This document shows, piece by piece, positions 84-41,827 of a stretch of 41,827 nt of DNA (position 1 is its first letter; each line of letters opens with the position of its first letter). The translations under genes were made by a program, and so were the position numbers. Location of the stretch: UHGV virus genome UHGV-0360402; one strand, written 5' to 3'. The notes beneath the pieces are model-generated. The model worked only from the letters and a program-made list of their open reading frames with translations. It had not been told where the DNA came from and did no database searches. Source of the DNA: a virus.

Positions 84-602
84 GTGATGAAATTAAAAAA
101 ATGTCTTCTGCCTGTGGCAATGTTAGCGTCATTTACTCTGGCAGGATGCCAGTCAAATGCTGATGATCATGCCGCCGATGTTTATCAAACCGATCAACTG
201 AATACCAAACAAGAAACTAAAACCGTTAATATTATTTCCATTCTTCCCGCAAAAGTTGCCGTAGACAACGCCCAAAATAAACGGAACGCACAAGCCTTCG
301 GCGCGCTTATTGGCGCTGTCGCTGGCGGTGTTATCGGCCACAACGTCGGGTCTGGCAGCAATTCCGGAACGACAGCAGGTGCAGTTGGCGGCGGAGCTGT
401 TGGCGCAGCAGCGGGTTCTATGGTGAATGATAAAACCTTAGTGGAAGGTGTTTCTTTAACATATAAGGAAGGCACCAAAGTGTATACCTCCACCCAGGTG
501 GGTAAAGAGTGCCAGTTTACGACAGGTTTAGCCGTTGTTATTACCACGACGTATAACGAAACGCGTATTCAGCCAAATACCAAATGTCCTGAAAAGAGCT
601 AA
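84..602 (+). CDS. yfgH: Host outer-membrane lipoprotein, glycine-zipper type (YfgH-like)
   Basis: ATG at 87 with AAGGA RBS (GTG at 84); signal peptide with lipobox LAGC; Gly/Ala-rich zipper GALIGAVAGGVIGH; 172 aa and position before a 179-aa gene match E. coli yfgH-yfgI as I recall them. Confidence 0.6.
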   Translation: MMKLKKCLLPVAMLASFTLAGCQSNADDHAADVYQTDQLNTKQETKTVNIISILPAKVAVDNAQNKRNAQAFGALIGAVAGGVIGHNVGSGSNSGTTAGAVGGGAVGAAAGSMVNDKTLVEGVSLTYKEGTKVYTSTQVGKECQFTTGLAVVITTTYNETRIQPNTKCPEKS

Positions 603-617
603 TAATCAGGAGGAGTC

Positions 618-1157
618 ATGAAGAAAGTTTTTCTTTGCGCCATCTTAGCCTCCTTAAGCTATCCGGCTATCGCCTCATCATTGCAGGATCAACTCTCGGC
701 TGTCGCAGAAGCGGAACAGCAAGGTAAAAATGAAGAGCAAAGGCAGCATGACGAATGGGTCGCGGAGCGCAACAGGGAAATCCAGCAAGAGAAGCAACGT
801 CGCGCAAACGCCCAGGCCGCGGCTAATAAAAGAGCGGCAACGGCAGCAGCGAATAAGAAAGCTCGTCAGGATAAACTGGACGCCGAAGCCACTGCGGACA
901 AAAAACGCGATCAAAGTTATGAAGATGAGCTACGTAGCTTAGAGATTCAGAAGCAAAAACTGGCGCTGGCGAAAGAAGAAGCCCGCGTTAAGCGCGAAAA
1001 CGAATTTATCGATCAGGAACTGAAGCACAAAGCTGCGCAAACCGATGTGGTGCAATCTGAAGCTGACGCAAACAGAAATATGACTGAAGGCGGTCGCGAT
1101 CTGATGAAAAGCGTGGGTAAAGCAGAAGAGAACAAATCGGACAGCTGGTTTAACTAA
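618..1157 (+). CDS. yfgI: Host secreted coiled-coil protein (YfgI-like)
   Basis: AGGAGG RBS 7 nt before ATG; N-terminal signal peptide; 179 aa; followed by intrinsic terminator; symbol from recalled size and synteny. Confidence 0.55.
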   Translation: MKKVFLCAILASLSYPAIASSLQDQLSAVAEAEQQGKNEEQRQHDEWVAERNREIQQEKQRRANAQAAANKRAATAAANKKARQDKLDAEATADKKRDQSYEDELRSLEIQKQKLALAKEEARVKRENEFIDQELKHKAAQTDVVQSEADANRNMTEGGRDLMKSVGKAEENKSDSWFN

Positions 1158-1195: not shown

Positions 1196-1229
1196 AAAAA
1201 ACCCTCTGTAGTAACAGAGGGTTTTGTTC
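1196..1229. terminator. Bidirectional rho-independent terminator (host intergenic)
   Basis: A-run, stem ccctctgt/acagaggg, T-run. Confidence 0.7.
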
Positions 1230-1250
1230 ATTCATAGTACAGGGTTCAAA

Positions 1251-1265
1251 TCATTCCCACTCAAT
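1251..1265 (-). other. Candidate att core: displaced copy of guaA 3' end (reverse strand reads ATT GAG TGG GAA TGA = I-E-W-E-stop)
   Basis: Minus strand encodes IEWE-stop, the conserved GMP synthase C-terminus, but is preceded in frame by a stop, so only the last codons are present; sits exactly at the host/phage boundary. Confidence 0.5.
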
Positions 1266-1352
1266 TATTTACGGCATGCATAACCAATTGACTGGTAACA
1301 ACTTTCTATAACCTTATTTTCACCGTACCGTTTTATATACCGTCACCGGAAA

Positions 1353-1850
1353 TCAGTGCCACGATTTTTGCTTCTTCAGTGAATCGTATTGCTGCTCGCA
1401 GAATTCCCCTGCGATACGATACTTTTCAGCCTCAGCTGCTGTTGCGTTGTAAACTCGGTTGCTTTCTTCAAGCATGTCGGCGAGCACACCGATGACCTTG
1501 CTGGCTGGCGTGCCAGGGGGGAAAGATCCGGTATAGTGTTCGGCGAGCCGCCTGGTTTTGTCAAGCTCGGCGCGCATGCTATCAGCAGCGGAATTAGCAT
1601 ACTCAGCATCAGCACGCGCCGCATCGATACGGGATTGTGCTTCACGTTCAATTTGTGTTTTCTCCTGCTCACGCTGTGACCTTAACTTATCATCAGCCTG
1701 TTTCTGATCTTCCTTCGCCTGAGCATACCCGGCATCGTACTGGCGGCTGCCATGCACATTCCAGGCAACAACGCAGCTGGCCACCAGAGCAGCAAGCATC
1801 GACACGATAAGCAACTGTTTCCAGTATGCTTTCACGAATGCCTTGATCAT
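1353..1850 (-). CDS. Rz-like i-spanin
   Basis: N-terminal TM helix then charged coiled-coil; last gene of lysis cassette; ATGA overlap with upstream gene; contains embedded +1 lipoprotein ORF. Confidence 0.75.
   Translation of the reverse strand: MIKAFVKAYWKQLLIVSMLAALVASCVVAWNVHGSRQYDAGYAQAKEDQKQADDKLRSQREQEKTQIEREAQSRIDAARADAEYANSAADSMRAELDKTRRLAEHYTGSFPPGTPASKVIGVLADMLEESNRVYNATAAEAEKYRIAGEFCEQQYDSLKKQKSWH
1376..1624 (-). CDS. Rz1-like o-spanin lipoprotein embedded in Rz (+1 frame)
   Basis: MRRVLMLSMLIPLLIAC signal with lipobox LIAC followed by Pro-rich mature region; entirely inside Rz; no strong SD, start uncertain. Confidence 0.55.
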   Translation of the reverse strand: MRRVLMLSMLIPLLIACAPSLTKPGGSPNTIPDLSPLARQPARSSVCSPTCLKKATEFTTQQQLRLKSIVSQGNSASSNTIH

Positions 1851-6132: not shown

Positions 6133-6236
6133 GTTAAATCTCCAGATAGTCGCAGCACCCGTTGCGCCGCATATCTGGTTATTCTATTACCTGAAAAACC
6201 ACATATGGATAGATAATCCATAAATACGAAAAGATA

Positions 6237-7497: not shown

Positions 7498-7577
7498 CGG
7501 GCACTGGCAAAATCCAGTGCCGGGATTGGTCTCCCGGATTACTAAGTGGCGCATACCACGCCAGACGTGGTTTTTTT
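7498..7577 (+). ncRNA. Candidate small RNA or terminated leader upstream of antA-like gene
   Basis: Promoter-like elements 7467-7496; two stable hairpins (gcactgg/ccagtgc; cggga/tcccg) then terminator hairpin ccacg/cgtgg plus T7; the overlapping 110-aa ORF lacks an RBS. Confidence 0.4.
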
Positions 7578-7735
7578 ATGCGTATAGCACAGTCATGCCA
7601 GAATTATGGTGGGCTGAATGGGGGTCCGAAAGGACGCCGGTACCACTTAGGCCGGTAAGACCAACTCCGTTCAGTTCACCACCATCTGATTGGTCTCAGC
7701 GGTGGTGATGTAATTCGCTAAGTGGAGACGCCATC

Positions 7736-8392
7736 ATGAACGCTCAACTCATCCCCGTATTCAACGGCACTATATCTAACGAAACAGCCCTACTTTGTAA
7801 TGCCCGCGATCTGCACGCTTTTTTAGGTGTTAAAAAGGTGTTTGCAGCATGGATTACAAATCGCATATCAGAATACGAATTCATTGAAAATCAAGACTAT
7901 ATTTTGCTTTCCAATTTGGGAAAGCAAACATCTGGTAGAGGCGGCCACAACCGCAAAGAGTACCACCTCACCCTTGATACAGCCAAAGAGCTGGCGATGG
8001 TCGAGCGTAACGAAAAAGGTCGCCAGGTGCGACGCTACTTCATTGAATGCGAGAAACGTTTAAGACAACAAGAAACAAAAGTGGAGAAGGTCTTGTCAGG
8101 CTTCATGCCCGCCATTATGGAGGCGATCAAGCTGGAAGACAAAAAAGAATACAGCGCCCCACTGAAGCCCGGCTACCGTAGCCTGATTCATTCGCCGTCT
8201 GGTGTTCTCGGCCTGACGGAGAACTCACTGCTGATGAATTTGCTGAACCAGTTACAGGAAGACGGGCACGACGTATCGGGCGCGGCGGCGGAACTGACCA
8301 CCATGTTCTGCTACATCGTCGGTGTGAGCAAATGCCTGCGTGATATCCAGACCCACGCGGAGTACATCAACGACAAGGCAGGGTTCTTCTGA
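7736..8392 (+). CDS. Antirepressor-type protein: AntA-like N-terminal domain fused to shared C-terminal module (218 aa)
   Basis: GGAG RBS; N-terminus matches AntA-type pattern ([39 protein letters not shown]); C-terminal 78 aa near-identical to C-terminus of 9256-10194 product. Confidence 0.8.
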
Positions 8393-8416
8393 CAGAACGG
8401 CGGCACAGGGATGTGC
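8163..8416. repeat. Inverted repeat, left arm (pairs with 9232-9486)
   Basis: About 254 bp, roughly 96% identical to reverse complement of right arm; covers the 3' coding end of the antirepressor plus 25 bp past its stop. Confidence 0.85.
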
Positions 8417-8464
8417 CTTTAAATAATTCTGTACGATTGCAGACTGGGGGTGAATAGCGTACTA

Positions 8465-8479
8465 TTACCTTAAAGGTAA
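8465..8479. promoter_or_regulatory. Operator-like palindrome TTACCttaaaGGTAA
   Basis: Identical to site at 7357; overlaps -10 of candidate promoter TTGCAG-17-TACTAT (8437-8465). Confidence 0.6.
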
Positions 8480-8491
8480 AGGAGGCGCGAT

Positions 8492-8659
8492 ATGACAGCG
8501 TTGAAAAATCGTACTCAGCACAATGAACAAGCCAAGCAATGCTGGGATGTCATTGGAAAAGTTATGCTTGGCCGCGCAAGCAAAGAGCGCGACAAGGATA
8601 TGGTTTACCAGACAGGAACATCTTTCAGCGACTTCAAGGCGGCATTTCGCTCCAAATAG
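8492..8659 (+). CDS. Small hypothetical protein (55 aa), first gene of IR-flanked cassette
   Basis: AAGGAGG RBS; below ORF-track size cut-off; GC and codon use phage-like (CGN arginines). Confidence 0.55.
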   Translation: MTALKNRTQHNEQAKQCWDVIGKVMLGRASKERDKDMVYQTGTSFSDFKAAFRSK

Positions 8660-27030: not shown

Positions 27031-27107
27031 GTGGCATTAGCTCAGTTGGACAGAGCAACCGCCTTCTAAGCGGTTGGTCGCAGGTTCGAATCCTGCATGC
27101 CACGCCA
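27031..27107 (+). tRNA. tRNA-Arg (anticodon UCU)
   Basis: Full cloverleaf folds by hand: 7-bp acceptor stem, D stem gctc/gagc, anticodon stem accgc/gcggt with loop cuUCUaa (anticodon 27065-27067), T arm gcagg-TTCGAAT-cctgc, encoded CCA. Confidence 0.9.
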
Positions 27108-39739: not shown

Positions 39740-40382
39740 GAAATACACACTAATCTATGCAGATCCACCCTGGGTATACCGGGACAAAGCCGCAGATGGT
39801 AATCGCGGTGCCGGTTTTAAATATCCGGTTATGAGTGTGCTGGATATCTGCCGCCTTCCTGTGTGGGATTTGGCCGATGAAAACTGTCTGTTGGCCATGT
39901 GGTGGGTGCCAACACAACCACTCGAAGCACTAAAAGTTGTTGAAGCCTGGGGATTTCGTCTGATGACGATGAAGGGCTTCACGTGGATAAAATGTGGTAG
40001 TCGACAACCAGATAAACTGGTTATGGGTATGGGACACATGACTCGCGCCAATAGTGAAGATTGCCTGTTTGCAGTAAAGGGAAAACTACCTCCACGCATT
40101 AATGCAGGGATCGTTCAGTCATTTACCGCACCGCGGCTTGAGCATTCAAGAAAACCAGATGTCGTTCGTGAAAAACTTGTGCAATTGTTAGGCGATGTTT
40201 CTCGCATTGAACTGTTCGCCCGCCAGTCGTCTCATGGCTTCGATGTTTGGGGTAATCAGTGCGAAGACCCGGCAGTGCAACTACACCCTGGATACGTGTT
40301 GGATATTGCCAGATTAACAAATGCATTCAGCAATGCTCCGCTGTCACCAACAGACAACCAGGGACGGGAGCGTGCAGCATGA
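39732..40382 (+). CDS. MT-A70-family DNA N6-adenine methyltransferase (216 aa)
   Basis: ATG 39732 (MTKKYTLIYADPPW); DPPW catalytic motif. Confidence 0.8.
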   Translation: MTKKYTLIYADPPWVYRDKAADGNRGAGFKYPVMSVLDICRLPVWDLADENCLLAMWWVPTQPLEALKVVEAWGFRLMTMKGFTWIKCGSRQPDKLVMGMGHMTRANSEDCLFAVKGKLPPRINAGIVQSFTAPRLEHSRKPDVVREKLVQLLGDVSRIELFARQSSHGFDVWGNQCEDPAVQLHPGYVLDIARLTNAFSNAPLSPTDNQGRERAA

Positions 40383-40573
40383 ACAGGGCATCACCAGCAG
40401 ATTTAAGGAAATGCCTTGAAACTGCATACATGCTTGCACACAGCGGGATCAGGTTTGTTCCAATTCCCGCTGTCACTGATGCTGAATTTGCAACACTGTC
40501 AGCAATATTCACAGGTAAAATTGAATCACTGGCAGCAGAAGCCGAGATGGAAGAAAATCAGCAGAATAATTAA
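40379..40573 (+). CDS. Hypothetical protein (64 aa)
   Basis: ATGA-coupled to methyltransferase stop; convergent with integrase. Confidence 0.5.
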   Translation: MNRASPADLRKCLETAYMLAHSGIRFVPIPAVTDAEFATLSAIFTGKIESLAAEAEMEENQQNN

Positions 40574-40576
40574 ACG

Positions 40577-41827
40577 TTATTCCCCCGCCATCCACTTCTC
40601 AAACTTCGACGGGGAGAACGGAATCAGATCCGTATGCTCCCCGTTAATCCAGGAATCAATCATATCGGCCCACTGCTGCAACATGTAGGCGCGCTGTCTG
40701 GCGTATTCCGCTTTGTTATATACGGCGCGCACACCTTTCTGCTCATGTGCCAGAGCCTTTTCAATCCAGTCTGAAGGATAACCAGCCTCATGCAACAACG
40801 TACTGGCTGTACGGCGCATATCATGTACAGTGAAGTCCTGAATATGCTCACCATCTTCATTTATTATTTTCACCGTTCTGTCGATCAGAGAGTTCAGCGC
40901 GGCATTAGATAATGGCTTCCGGAAATTGTAACGACCAGGAACCAGATATTCACTTCCACCAGCGCACATCTGCAACCCGACCAATATATCCTGTGCCTGT
41001 TTAGGCAGGTAAATAACGTGCGCCCGGCTTCCCTTCATGCGGTCTGAAGGAATTGTCCATGTCCATTTTTTAAAATCTATTTCGTCCCACGTTGCATTGG
41101 TGAATTCGCCTTTACGAACCATAGTGATAAGCACCAGCTTTAAAGCCATTTTCATAGTGCCCATAGCACCAATGGCATCCAGCGTGCGGAAGAACAGGCC
41201 AATTTCTTCTGGTGTCAGTGTTCGCTCTCGTGGTTTAAATATGGCGATAGCCGAAGGTTTAATGTCAGCCGCAGGATTAAACAAACCATGACCACGGTCA
41301 TTGGCGTGACGGTATACGCTGCTGATGATCTCCCTGGCCTGTACTGCTGTTGCCCGACCACCGCGTTCGACAATCCGGTCACACAAATCACGAACCATCG
41401 ATGTGGTAATTTCAGCCATCATTTTGTTGCCAAGAACCGGAAGTATGTCACGGTCGATCACCGCCTGCTTCATTGCGCGGGTACTGTCAGCCAGGATGAC
41501 GTGTTTCATATAACTGTCGGTATGTACCGCAAACGTCTCGGCACCACGAATCTTTTTGATACCGTCACGTTTAGCTGCAGCCGGCGACTGGCCTGCTTTA
41601 AGCAGCTTCTTTGCAGCAATCAGTTCTTCTCGCGCTTCTGCCAGGCTGATACCGTCACGCCCATACTGCCCGATTACCAGTGTTTCGCGGCGACCGTTGA
41701 TACGGTAGTCATAGCGAAACGAGACCGTACCTGACGTAAGCACAGCTACATACAGCCCGTCACGATCGGAAACTTTGTACAGTTTGTCCTGTGGCTTGAG
41801 GTTCTTTAATTTTGTATCGGTAAGCAC
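40577..41827 (-). CDS. Tyrosine integrase, P4-family (N-terminus at or just beyond window edge)
   Basis: N-terminal LTDTKLKNLKP...DGLYVAV...FRYDYR arm-binding region; C-terminal HDMRRT and AVYNKAEY catalytic motifs; ORF open to the last base. Confidence 0.85.
   Translation of the reverse strand: MLTDTKLKNLKPQDKLYKVSDRDGLYVAVLTSGTVSFRYDYRINGRRETLVIGQYGRDGISLAEAREELIAAKKLLKAGQSPAAAKRDGIKKIRGAETFAVHTDSYMKHVILADSTRAMKQAVIDRDILPVLGNKMMAEITTSMVRDLCDRIVERGGRATAVQAREIISSVYRHANDRGHGLFNPAADIKPSAIAIFKPRERTLTPEEIGLFFRTLDAIGAMGTMKMALKLVLITMVRKGEFTNATWDEIDFKKWTWTIPSDRMKGSRAHVIYLPKQAQDILVGLQMCAGGSEYLVPGRYNFRKPLSNAALNSLIDRTVKIINEDGEHIQDFTVHDMRRTASTLLHEAGYPSDWIEKALAHEQKGVRAVYNKAEYARQRAYMLQQWADMIDSWINGEHTDLIPFSPSKFEKWMAGE

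Follow-up and report, generated by a model that had tools for sequence, protein, structure and literature searches.

A stretch of DNA recorded as a virus genome (UHGV-0360402) carries, near its left end, what reads as the last codons of a bacterial gene, which raises the question of how this fragment came to lie beside phage genes. We analysed the whole stretch of 41,827 nucleotides, hereafter the window, with a focus on positions 1196-1352. The initial annotation, made from the sequence alone, had interpreted this locus as the left junction of a prophage integrated at guaA, the gene for GMP synthase. Based on the evidence below, we conclude that 1196-1352 is almost certainly the integrase-distal junction of a ~40.8-kb epsilon15/phiV10-type (Uetakevirus) prophage inserted site-specifically at the last codons of E. 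coli guaA.

The DNA to the left of the junction is bacterial, and comprises the following features.

84-602, plus strand: yfgH, which in the host encodes an outer-membrane lipoprotein (RefSeq annotation of E. coli SCU-101, whose flank is 100% identical; Pfam glycine-zipper).
618-1157, plus strand: yfgI (DUF5384), a host gene that faces guaA in unoccupied genomes (RefSeq annotation of the SCU-101 flank; Pfam E = 4e-62).
About 1196-1227, both strands: the native two-way yfgI/guaA hairpin terminator, AAAAAACCCTCTGT-AGTA-ACAGAGGGTTTTGT (folding; part of the contiguous empty site in 4567 genomes).
1228-1248, minus strand: what is left of the host's own guaA 3' untranslated spacer (the match to empty-site genomes runs unbroken as far as 1265).

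The yfgH- and yfgI-like genes that had been proposed to the left of the junction are thus confirmed by both the RefSeq annotation of the identical flank and Pfam. The resemblance to the E. coli yfgI-guaA neighbourhood, which had also been pointed out, proved correct, as E. coli genomes with an empty site carry yfgI and guaA adjacent and contiguous. The bidirectional terminator held up as well. At about 1198-1225, the hairpin folds strongly on both strands (plus, -22.7 kcal/mol, z score -6.6; minus, -18.2 kcal/mol, z score -6.2; 0 of 200 shuffles as good), and its stem, ACCCTCTGT/ACAGAGGGT, is lengthened by A/T pairs and followed by T-runs on both strands (plus, TTTTGTT; minus, TTTTTTAT). A GC-rich hairpin with a T-run in each direction is the make-up of a two-way intrinsic (rho-independent) terminator, and termination is predicted both ways. 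A consensus terminator scanner run on positions 1000-1500 called nothing, probably as a result of the A and T runs being base-paired within the stem. Downstream of guaA, this stem is retained across Escherichia, Serratia, Buttiauxella and Citrobacter.

Immediately beyond the spacer lies the fragment that raised the question.

1249-1265, minus strand (ATTGAGTGGGAATGATT): the 17-bp att core, AATCATTCCCACTCAAT (the sole stretch identical between both junctions, and the same as the published attP/attB core, PMC9782041).

The core holds the last four codons of guaA (I-E-W-E), the stop codon and 2 nt. Its plus strand at 1251-1265 is TCATTCCCACTCAAT, the reverse complement of which, ATTGAGTGGGAATGA, encodes I-E-W-E-stop, as had been claimed; GuaA in the matching genome ends in ...KPPATIEWE. 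The initial annotation further stated that an in-frame stop precedes this fragment. The stop (TAA) is indeed present, but is not adjacent: it lies two codons upstream, separated by one additional Ile codon, and the minus strand reads ...CCG TAA ATA ATT GAG TGG GAA TGA. Because of this upstream TAA, the stub has no reading frame. The 15-mer occurs only once in the window, and the 17-mer has one exact copy and a single other match, with 3 mismatches, elsewhere, a level comparable to that of shuffled sequences. We also sought a clear dyad of core-type sites around the 17-mer, and found only an imperfect inverted repeat, insufficient to place the overlap region. This repeat (78%) joins 1254-1271 with 1281-1298, linking the conserved phage-arm block ATAACCAATTGACTGG to TATTTA and the core's right half, and may be a core-type or accessory-protein site. 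Rfam matched no RNA family on the junction.

If the stub is a displaced att core, an intact guaA closed by a second copy of the core should lie beyond the other end of the prophage. Since the window stops precisely on the start codon of the integrase, the right junction was inferred from relatives. E. coli SCU-101 is 100% identical to the window over 1-1400 and 39800-41827, and continues beyond the integrase with 190 bp of non-coding DNA followed by intact guaA (525 aa), guaB and xseA. Its guaA ends in TCATTCCCACTCAAT, 190 bp past the integrase start codon, so that both guaA and the second core copy are found where they had been predicted. Given these identical ends, guaA probably lies beyond 41827 in the window's own prophage, which would then extend from 1266 to ~190 bp beyond the window (~40.8 kb).

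We next reconstructed the unoccupied site by joining the window left of the core, the core itself and the guaA side of the other junction. This predicted attB is present, contiguous and 100% identical, in Nissle 1917, CFT073, ATCC 25922, ABU 83972 and others, so that the empty yfgI-guaA locus with the core on its yfgI side, the second expectation of the initial annotation, exists verbatim. Among 5426 complete E. coli genomes, 4567 carry the contiguous attB and 568 carry the integrase-guaA junction. In the empty-site genomes, the match to the left junction stops at window position 1265, and the match to the integrase-guaA junction begins only at position 6219 of locus L001, which is the first base of the 17-mer. 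Homology to the empty site therefore breaks at the edges of the core, the boundary is resolved to the base (host DNA through 1248, shared core at 1249-1265, phage DNA from 1266), and strand exchange must fall inside the 17 bp. These results support the interpretation of the stub as a displaced att core. They also bear on the claim that the phage supplies the gene terminus at the other junction, which it does with the last five guaA codons, identical in sequence to those of the host.

The same breakpoints speak to the reading that the IEWE-stop 15-mer is a chance or unrelated phage sequence, and that the prophage merely sits between yfgI and guaA without including guaA codons. A 15-nt stub without a reading frame can do nothing by itself, and the right junction falls outside the window, both of which would suit a coincidence. 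However, the 17-mer is the exact stretch common to both junctions, thousands of empty sites break at its edges, it is invariant in the attP of 8 phages and identical to the published core, and shuffled sequences yielded a mean of only 0.16 matches to it even at <=3 mismatches. We consider the probability of a coincidence to be negligible.

The site was then reconstructed from the phage side, by joining the integrase-side arm, the core and the window from 1266 onward. Two features to the right of the core are needed here.

1266-1352: the integrase-distal attP arm (in free phages it runs unbroken into the core and the integrase-side arm).
1353-1850, minus strand: an Rz-like spanin gene (DUF2514), which closes the lysis cassette and is the first prophage gene (Pfam E = 5e-22; so annotated in phiV10 and Tyrion).

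The predicted attP is contiguous over its full length in the free phages Phi05_2388 B (96.7%), Tyrion, PAT1, 65FD and 66FD, while its first 309 bp are found at about 92-93% in phiV10, O157 typing phages 9 and 10, ZX5 and others. In free phages it sits between the int and Rz genes, with the core 190 bp from int. An alignment of attP from 8 Uetakeviruses of four host genera (Escherichia, Salmonella, Enterobacter and Klebsiella) revealed four elements that are invariant or nearly so, namely GGTAATACCGTCA, GTACCGTTTTATATACCGTCAC, the 23-bp block ATCATTCCCACTCAATTATTTAC and a hairpin, whereas the sequence around them varies. Within the integrase-distal arm, the invariant blocks are TATTTAC, ATAACCAATTGACTG and GTACCGTTTTATATACCGTCAC, the last of which includes ATACCGTCA at 1337-1345. 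The window contains 4 copies of ATACCGTCA where 0.2 are expected, one in this arm and three in the 5' region of int, and two further copies lie in the integrase-side arm (L001 6056 and 6085). The invariant blocks of the distal arm are candidate arm-type sites for the integrase, which has an Arm-DNA-bind_3 domain, or for an accessory protein, and the ATACCGTCA-type repeats in both arms look like arm-type integrase sites.

The structure of attP is also what decides against the stub being a relic of a guaA duplication, a pseudogene or a rearrangement rather than a site-specific att core. The stub does sit beside the original guaA terminator, as a truncated gene copy would. Yet only 17 bp are duplicated, with no more guaA sequence, the DNA from 1266 is phage DNA that is contiguous with the core in free phages, and between 179 and 568 genomes, as well as other genera carrying this integrase, show the same junction. 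This origin has virtually no probability in our estimation. Overall, the breakpoints rule out coincidence, a duplicated or decayed guaA copy, and insertion between genes without the involvement of guaA codons.

With the stub established as an att core, we turned to the enzyme and to the element as a whole.

40577-41827, minus strand: a tyrosine integrase of the epsilon15/phiV10 type, 416 aa (Pfam Arm-DNA-bind_3, Phage_int_M and Phage_integrase).

The protein is identical to the phiV10 integrase at 412 of 416 residues (99%), and shares 88% identity with its counterpart from a Citrobacter werkmanii prophage that occupies this guaA position. This integrase is present in 554 E. coli genomes, compared with the 568 that carry the integrase-guaA junction, indicating that practically every copy of it resides at guaA. 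The three exact ATACCGTCA copies in the gene are within its 5' third (41307-41315 on the minus strand, 41559-41567 and 41649-41657 on the plus strand), and two of them specify, codon for codon, the same recurring peptide, RDGI. Across 6 Uetakevirus integrase genes the GATACCGTCACG blocks vary little or not at all, while third-codon positions close by do vary. These internal copies could be extra integrase-binding sites or just conserved coding sequence.

The prophage aligned with the following phages over the left or right part of the window.

TL-2011b, left part: 78% coverage, 96.3% identity.
phiv142-3, right part: 86% coverage, 97.2% identity.
vB_EcoP_PAS61, right part: 84% coverage, 97.0% identity.
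vB_EcoP_ZX5, right part: 78% coverage, 97.3% identity.
phiV10, left and right parts: 33% and 45% coverage, 93.7% and 98.0% identity.

The database record of phiV10 places it in the genus Uetakevirus, and ZX5 has been assigned to the same genus, with epsilon15 and phiv142-3 treated as close relatives (PMC9782041). The statement that epsilon15-type phages integrate at guaA is thereby substantiated, as the prophage is a Uetakevirus with an integrase 99% identical to that of phiV10, and the same core is published (PMC9782041; PMC8138268). Taken together, we find the 17-bp core, a second core closing an intact guaA (in SCU-101), a contiguous attB, a contiguous attP beside int, a P4-like, arm-binding integrase of the epsilon15 cluster and a genome collinear with TL-2011b, phiv142-3, PAS61, ZX5 and phiV10, all of which define a Uetakevirus junction at guaA.

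Whether the junction is a working attachment site or the fossil of a defective, immobile remnant is a separate matter. The prophage is mosaic relative to its closest relatives. The SCU-101 and C25 prophages have ends that are 100% identical to those of the window, yet they are 1230 and 1255 bp shorter; the window's element is thus ~1.2 kb longer than that of SCU-101, and differs from it over ~8.3-17.5 kb. The large internal virion-protein genes differ in length between the window and these two prophages, and a search of complete E. coli genomes with window 8300-17500 gave no 100% match (best, 99.8% identity over 92%). Such mosaicism might be taken as a sign of decay. However, both att arms, the core and the full-length integrase (99% phiV10) are intact, the ~40.8-kb element carries the full Uetakevirus gene set, and the close relative ZX5 induces spontaneously from the same guaA site (PMC9782041). 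We therefore regard a dead remnant as unlikely, and favour an attachment site that is still functional.

Several other features of the prophage came to light in the course of this analysis. Rfam identified isrK (7501-7577, plus strand, 67.7 bits) and a C4 antisense RNA (7602-7686, plus strand, 61.2 bits) directly upstream of an Ant-type antirepressor gene (7736-8392, plus strand, phrog_377), a set that looks like a P1/P7-style or Gifsy-style RNA-controlled antirepressor module in a podovirus prophage. A P22-type sar antisense RNA (10196-10263, plus strand; its 45.2 bits narrowly exceed the gathering score) directly adjoins the start of another Ant antirepressor gene (9256-10194, minus strand, phrog_524/245), with an Arc-like regulator gene nearby (10525-10986, plus strand). 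With the isrK/C4 and sar sets, the prophage carries two antirepressor modules, each with a different antisense RNA control. A phage-borne tRNA-Arg gene (anticodon TCT; 27031-27107, plus strand) lies between the packaging and replication regions, and is also annotated in the SCU-101 prophage.

How would integration at this site proceed? Arm-binding tyrosine integrases such as those of lambda and P4 exchange strands across an overlap of 6-8 bp, and their N-terminal domains bind repeated arm sites. By analogy, the integrase would recombine phage attP with bacterial attB across the 17-bp core ATTGAGTGGGAATGATT, with strand exchange in a 6-8-bp overlap inside it. The recombinant junctions are host flank-core-phage arm, at 1196-1352, and phage arm-core-guaA. 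As the phage-borne core is identical to that of the host, the guaA coding sequence is unchanged, and the phage contributes to the gene only its last five codons, a 3' untranslated stretch and a terminator. After integration, guaA is trailed by the 190-bp integrase-side arm with a hairpin of the native stem, while the other core copy is left at 1249-1265 as a five-codon stub between the guaA 3' spacer with its native terminator and the phage arm with the lysis genes.

The consequence for transcription is an apparent exchange of terminators. The hairpin of the integrase-side arm, AAAAACCCTCTGT-AAAA-ACAGAGGGTT (AAAAACCCTCTGTAAAAACAGAGGGTT), folds at -17.4 and -16.6 kcal/mol and is an annotated terminator in phiV10; the native yfgI/guaA terminator has the same 9-bp stem. 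In the lysogen, the native hairpin is separated from guaA and is now downstream of the phage lysis genes. guaBA is transcribed in the direction of int, both being on one strand; the phage hairpin would terminate that transcription and shield int from guaBA read-through, and the lysis operon, ending at 1353, would run into the displaced native hairpin. Integration would in this way swap like-for-like terminators.

To ask where such an arm might have come from, one genome per species was scanned for the stem, N4, the stem, 20-50 nt and the core, which yielded 14 loci. Two Escherichia-length matches, L020 (another E. coli locus) and L018 (a contig of 336 bp), stayed outside the alignment of these. 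The loci grouped as follows.

Native, no phage arm, 27-28-nt spacer: E. coli ECMA0423, E. ruysiae and Escherichia sp. MOD1.
Native, no phage arm: Serratia montpellierensis (47-nt spacer) and Buttiauxella sp. B2 (37-nt spacer).
Prophage junction with a Uetakevirus arm: K. pneumoniae ATCC 13883, Kluyvera sp. STS39-E and C. werkmanii.
Core occupied by other elements: Serratia nevei and Pseudescherichia sp.
47-nt spacer ~85% like that of the phage, with unrelated sequence upstream of the hairpin: Citrobacter sp. NCU1 and Citrobacter sp. Awk 4.

The contig L018 (coverage 0.76, labelled Brevibacterium sp. UMB10442) has the hairpin and core with the match length of native Escherichia, and was taken as E. 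coli contamination. In Serratia nevei (L012, 4762-4885) and Pseudescherichia sp. (L015, 7198-7318), the guaA core is followed by arms unlike those of Uetakevirus (TATCAATTACC... and TATTAACCATAAG..., respectively), suggesting that other integrative elements use the site in other genera, in line with guaA being a hot spot (GIsul2, CMGI-3).

The two Citrobacter loci (NCU1, L011 1370-1462; Awk 4, L021 3822-3905) have the order guaA-core-47-nt spacer-hairpin and are ~85-90% like the inner integrase-side arm of the phage. When the phage inner arm is compared with this apparently native flank, the spacer is ~85% identical and the stem is identical. Upstream of the hairpin in NCU1, reading of the sequence revealed an apparent chromosomal ORF that runs off the end of the locus, followed by an AT-rich spacer, and no integrase, phage DNA or Rfam match was found there. 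The NCU1 and Awk 4 flank may be either the native source of the phage arm or the scar of a prophage; most simply, the inner integrase-side arm would be derived from the guaA 3' flank of a bacterium. We tentatively propose, at somewhat below even chances, that the inner arm (core, 47-nt spacer and hairpin, ~90 bp) is a captured, Citrobacter-like enterobacterial guaA 3' UTR and terminator, that integration exchanges homologous terminators, and that the ATACCGTCA copies inside int could serve integrase autoregulation. If true, guaBA stays terminated, int is shielded from guaBA read-through and the lysis operon inherits the native terminator. We did not find terminator capture or int autoregulation stated in the accessible literature, although the epsilon15 and phiV10 genome papers may cover them.

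The attachment site itself is well documented. Its core was reported as attgagtgggaatgatt, 190 bp from the 5' end of int, with the same 17-mer serving as attP in phiV10, epsilon15 and vB_EcoP_ZX5 and as attB at the guaA 3' end, and PCR with Sanger sequencing of attB, attL and attR confirmed the integration of ZX5 (PMC9782041). All members of the epsilon15 integrase cluster target the guaA 3' flank (PMC8138268), and a phiV10-like phage was found inserted in guaA of an O103:H25 strain (PMC3293862). The published 17-mer and 190-bp distance are exactly those found at this junction, which is the standard phiV10/epsilon15-type attachment site at the guaA 3' end. Since that site is already published and experimentally verified, the finding is an ordinary one. 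It fixes the left prophage boundary to the base and assigns the element to the podoviruses of the phiV10/epsilon15 type, in their usual guaA site, which is useful for annotation, for prophage typing (the junction is in ~10% of complete E. coli genomes) and for the design of attB, attL and attR PCR. No new biological question is opened, and the terminator swap and arm repeats are modest refinements of textbook integration.

Compared with known systems, the window's prophage most closely resembles phiV10, vB_EcoP_ZX5, TL-2011b and phiv142-3, which share the core attgagtgggaatgatt at the guaA 3' end, the 190 bp to the integrase start and the gene order of int, attP and Rz/lysis, with 78-86% of the genome aligning at 96-97%. 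Relative to these phages the accessory regions of the window are mosaic, with the two antirepressor modules and their sar and isrK/C4 RNAs among the differences, while the att site itself shows no difference; the integrase-distal arm and Rz region are nearer to those of Tyrion or Phi05_2388 B than to phiV10. Salmonella phage epsilon15, the type of Uetakevirus, belongs to the same integrase cluster and has the same guaA 3'-flank target (PMC8138268, citing Kropinski 2007; PMC9782041). The epsilon15-like Salmonella phages VB_ST_E15, SPN1S and PAT1 have the invariant core block, hairpin and arm repeats in common with the window, whereas the epsilon15 group differs in host genus and in an attP that is ~82-86% identical outside the invariant blocks. 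GIsul2 and related islands likewise insert at the guaA 3' end, at a site, GAGTGGGA, inside this 17-bp core (PMC9376610), but they are non-phage elements with a different integrase and different arms. More broadly, the system resembles integration of the lambda/P4 type in its Arm-DNA-bind_3, core-binding and catalytic domains, its short common core, its flanking arm repeats and the restoration of the target gene by phage sequence, but differs in that its target is the end of a protein-coding gene rather than a tRNA gene or an intergenic site.
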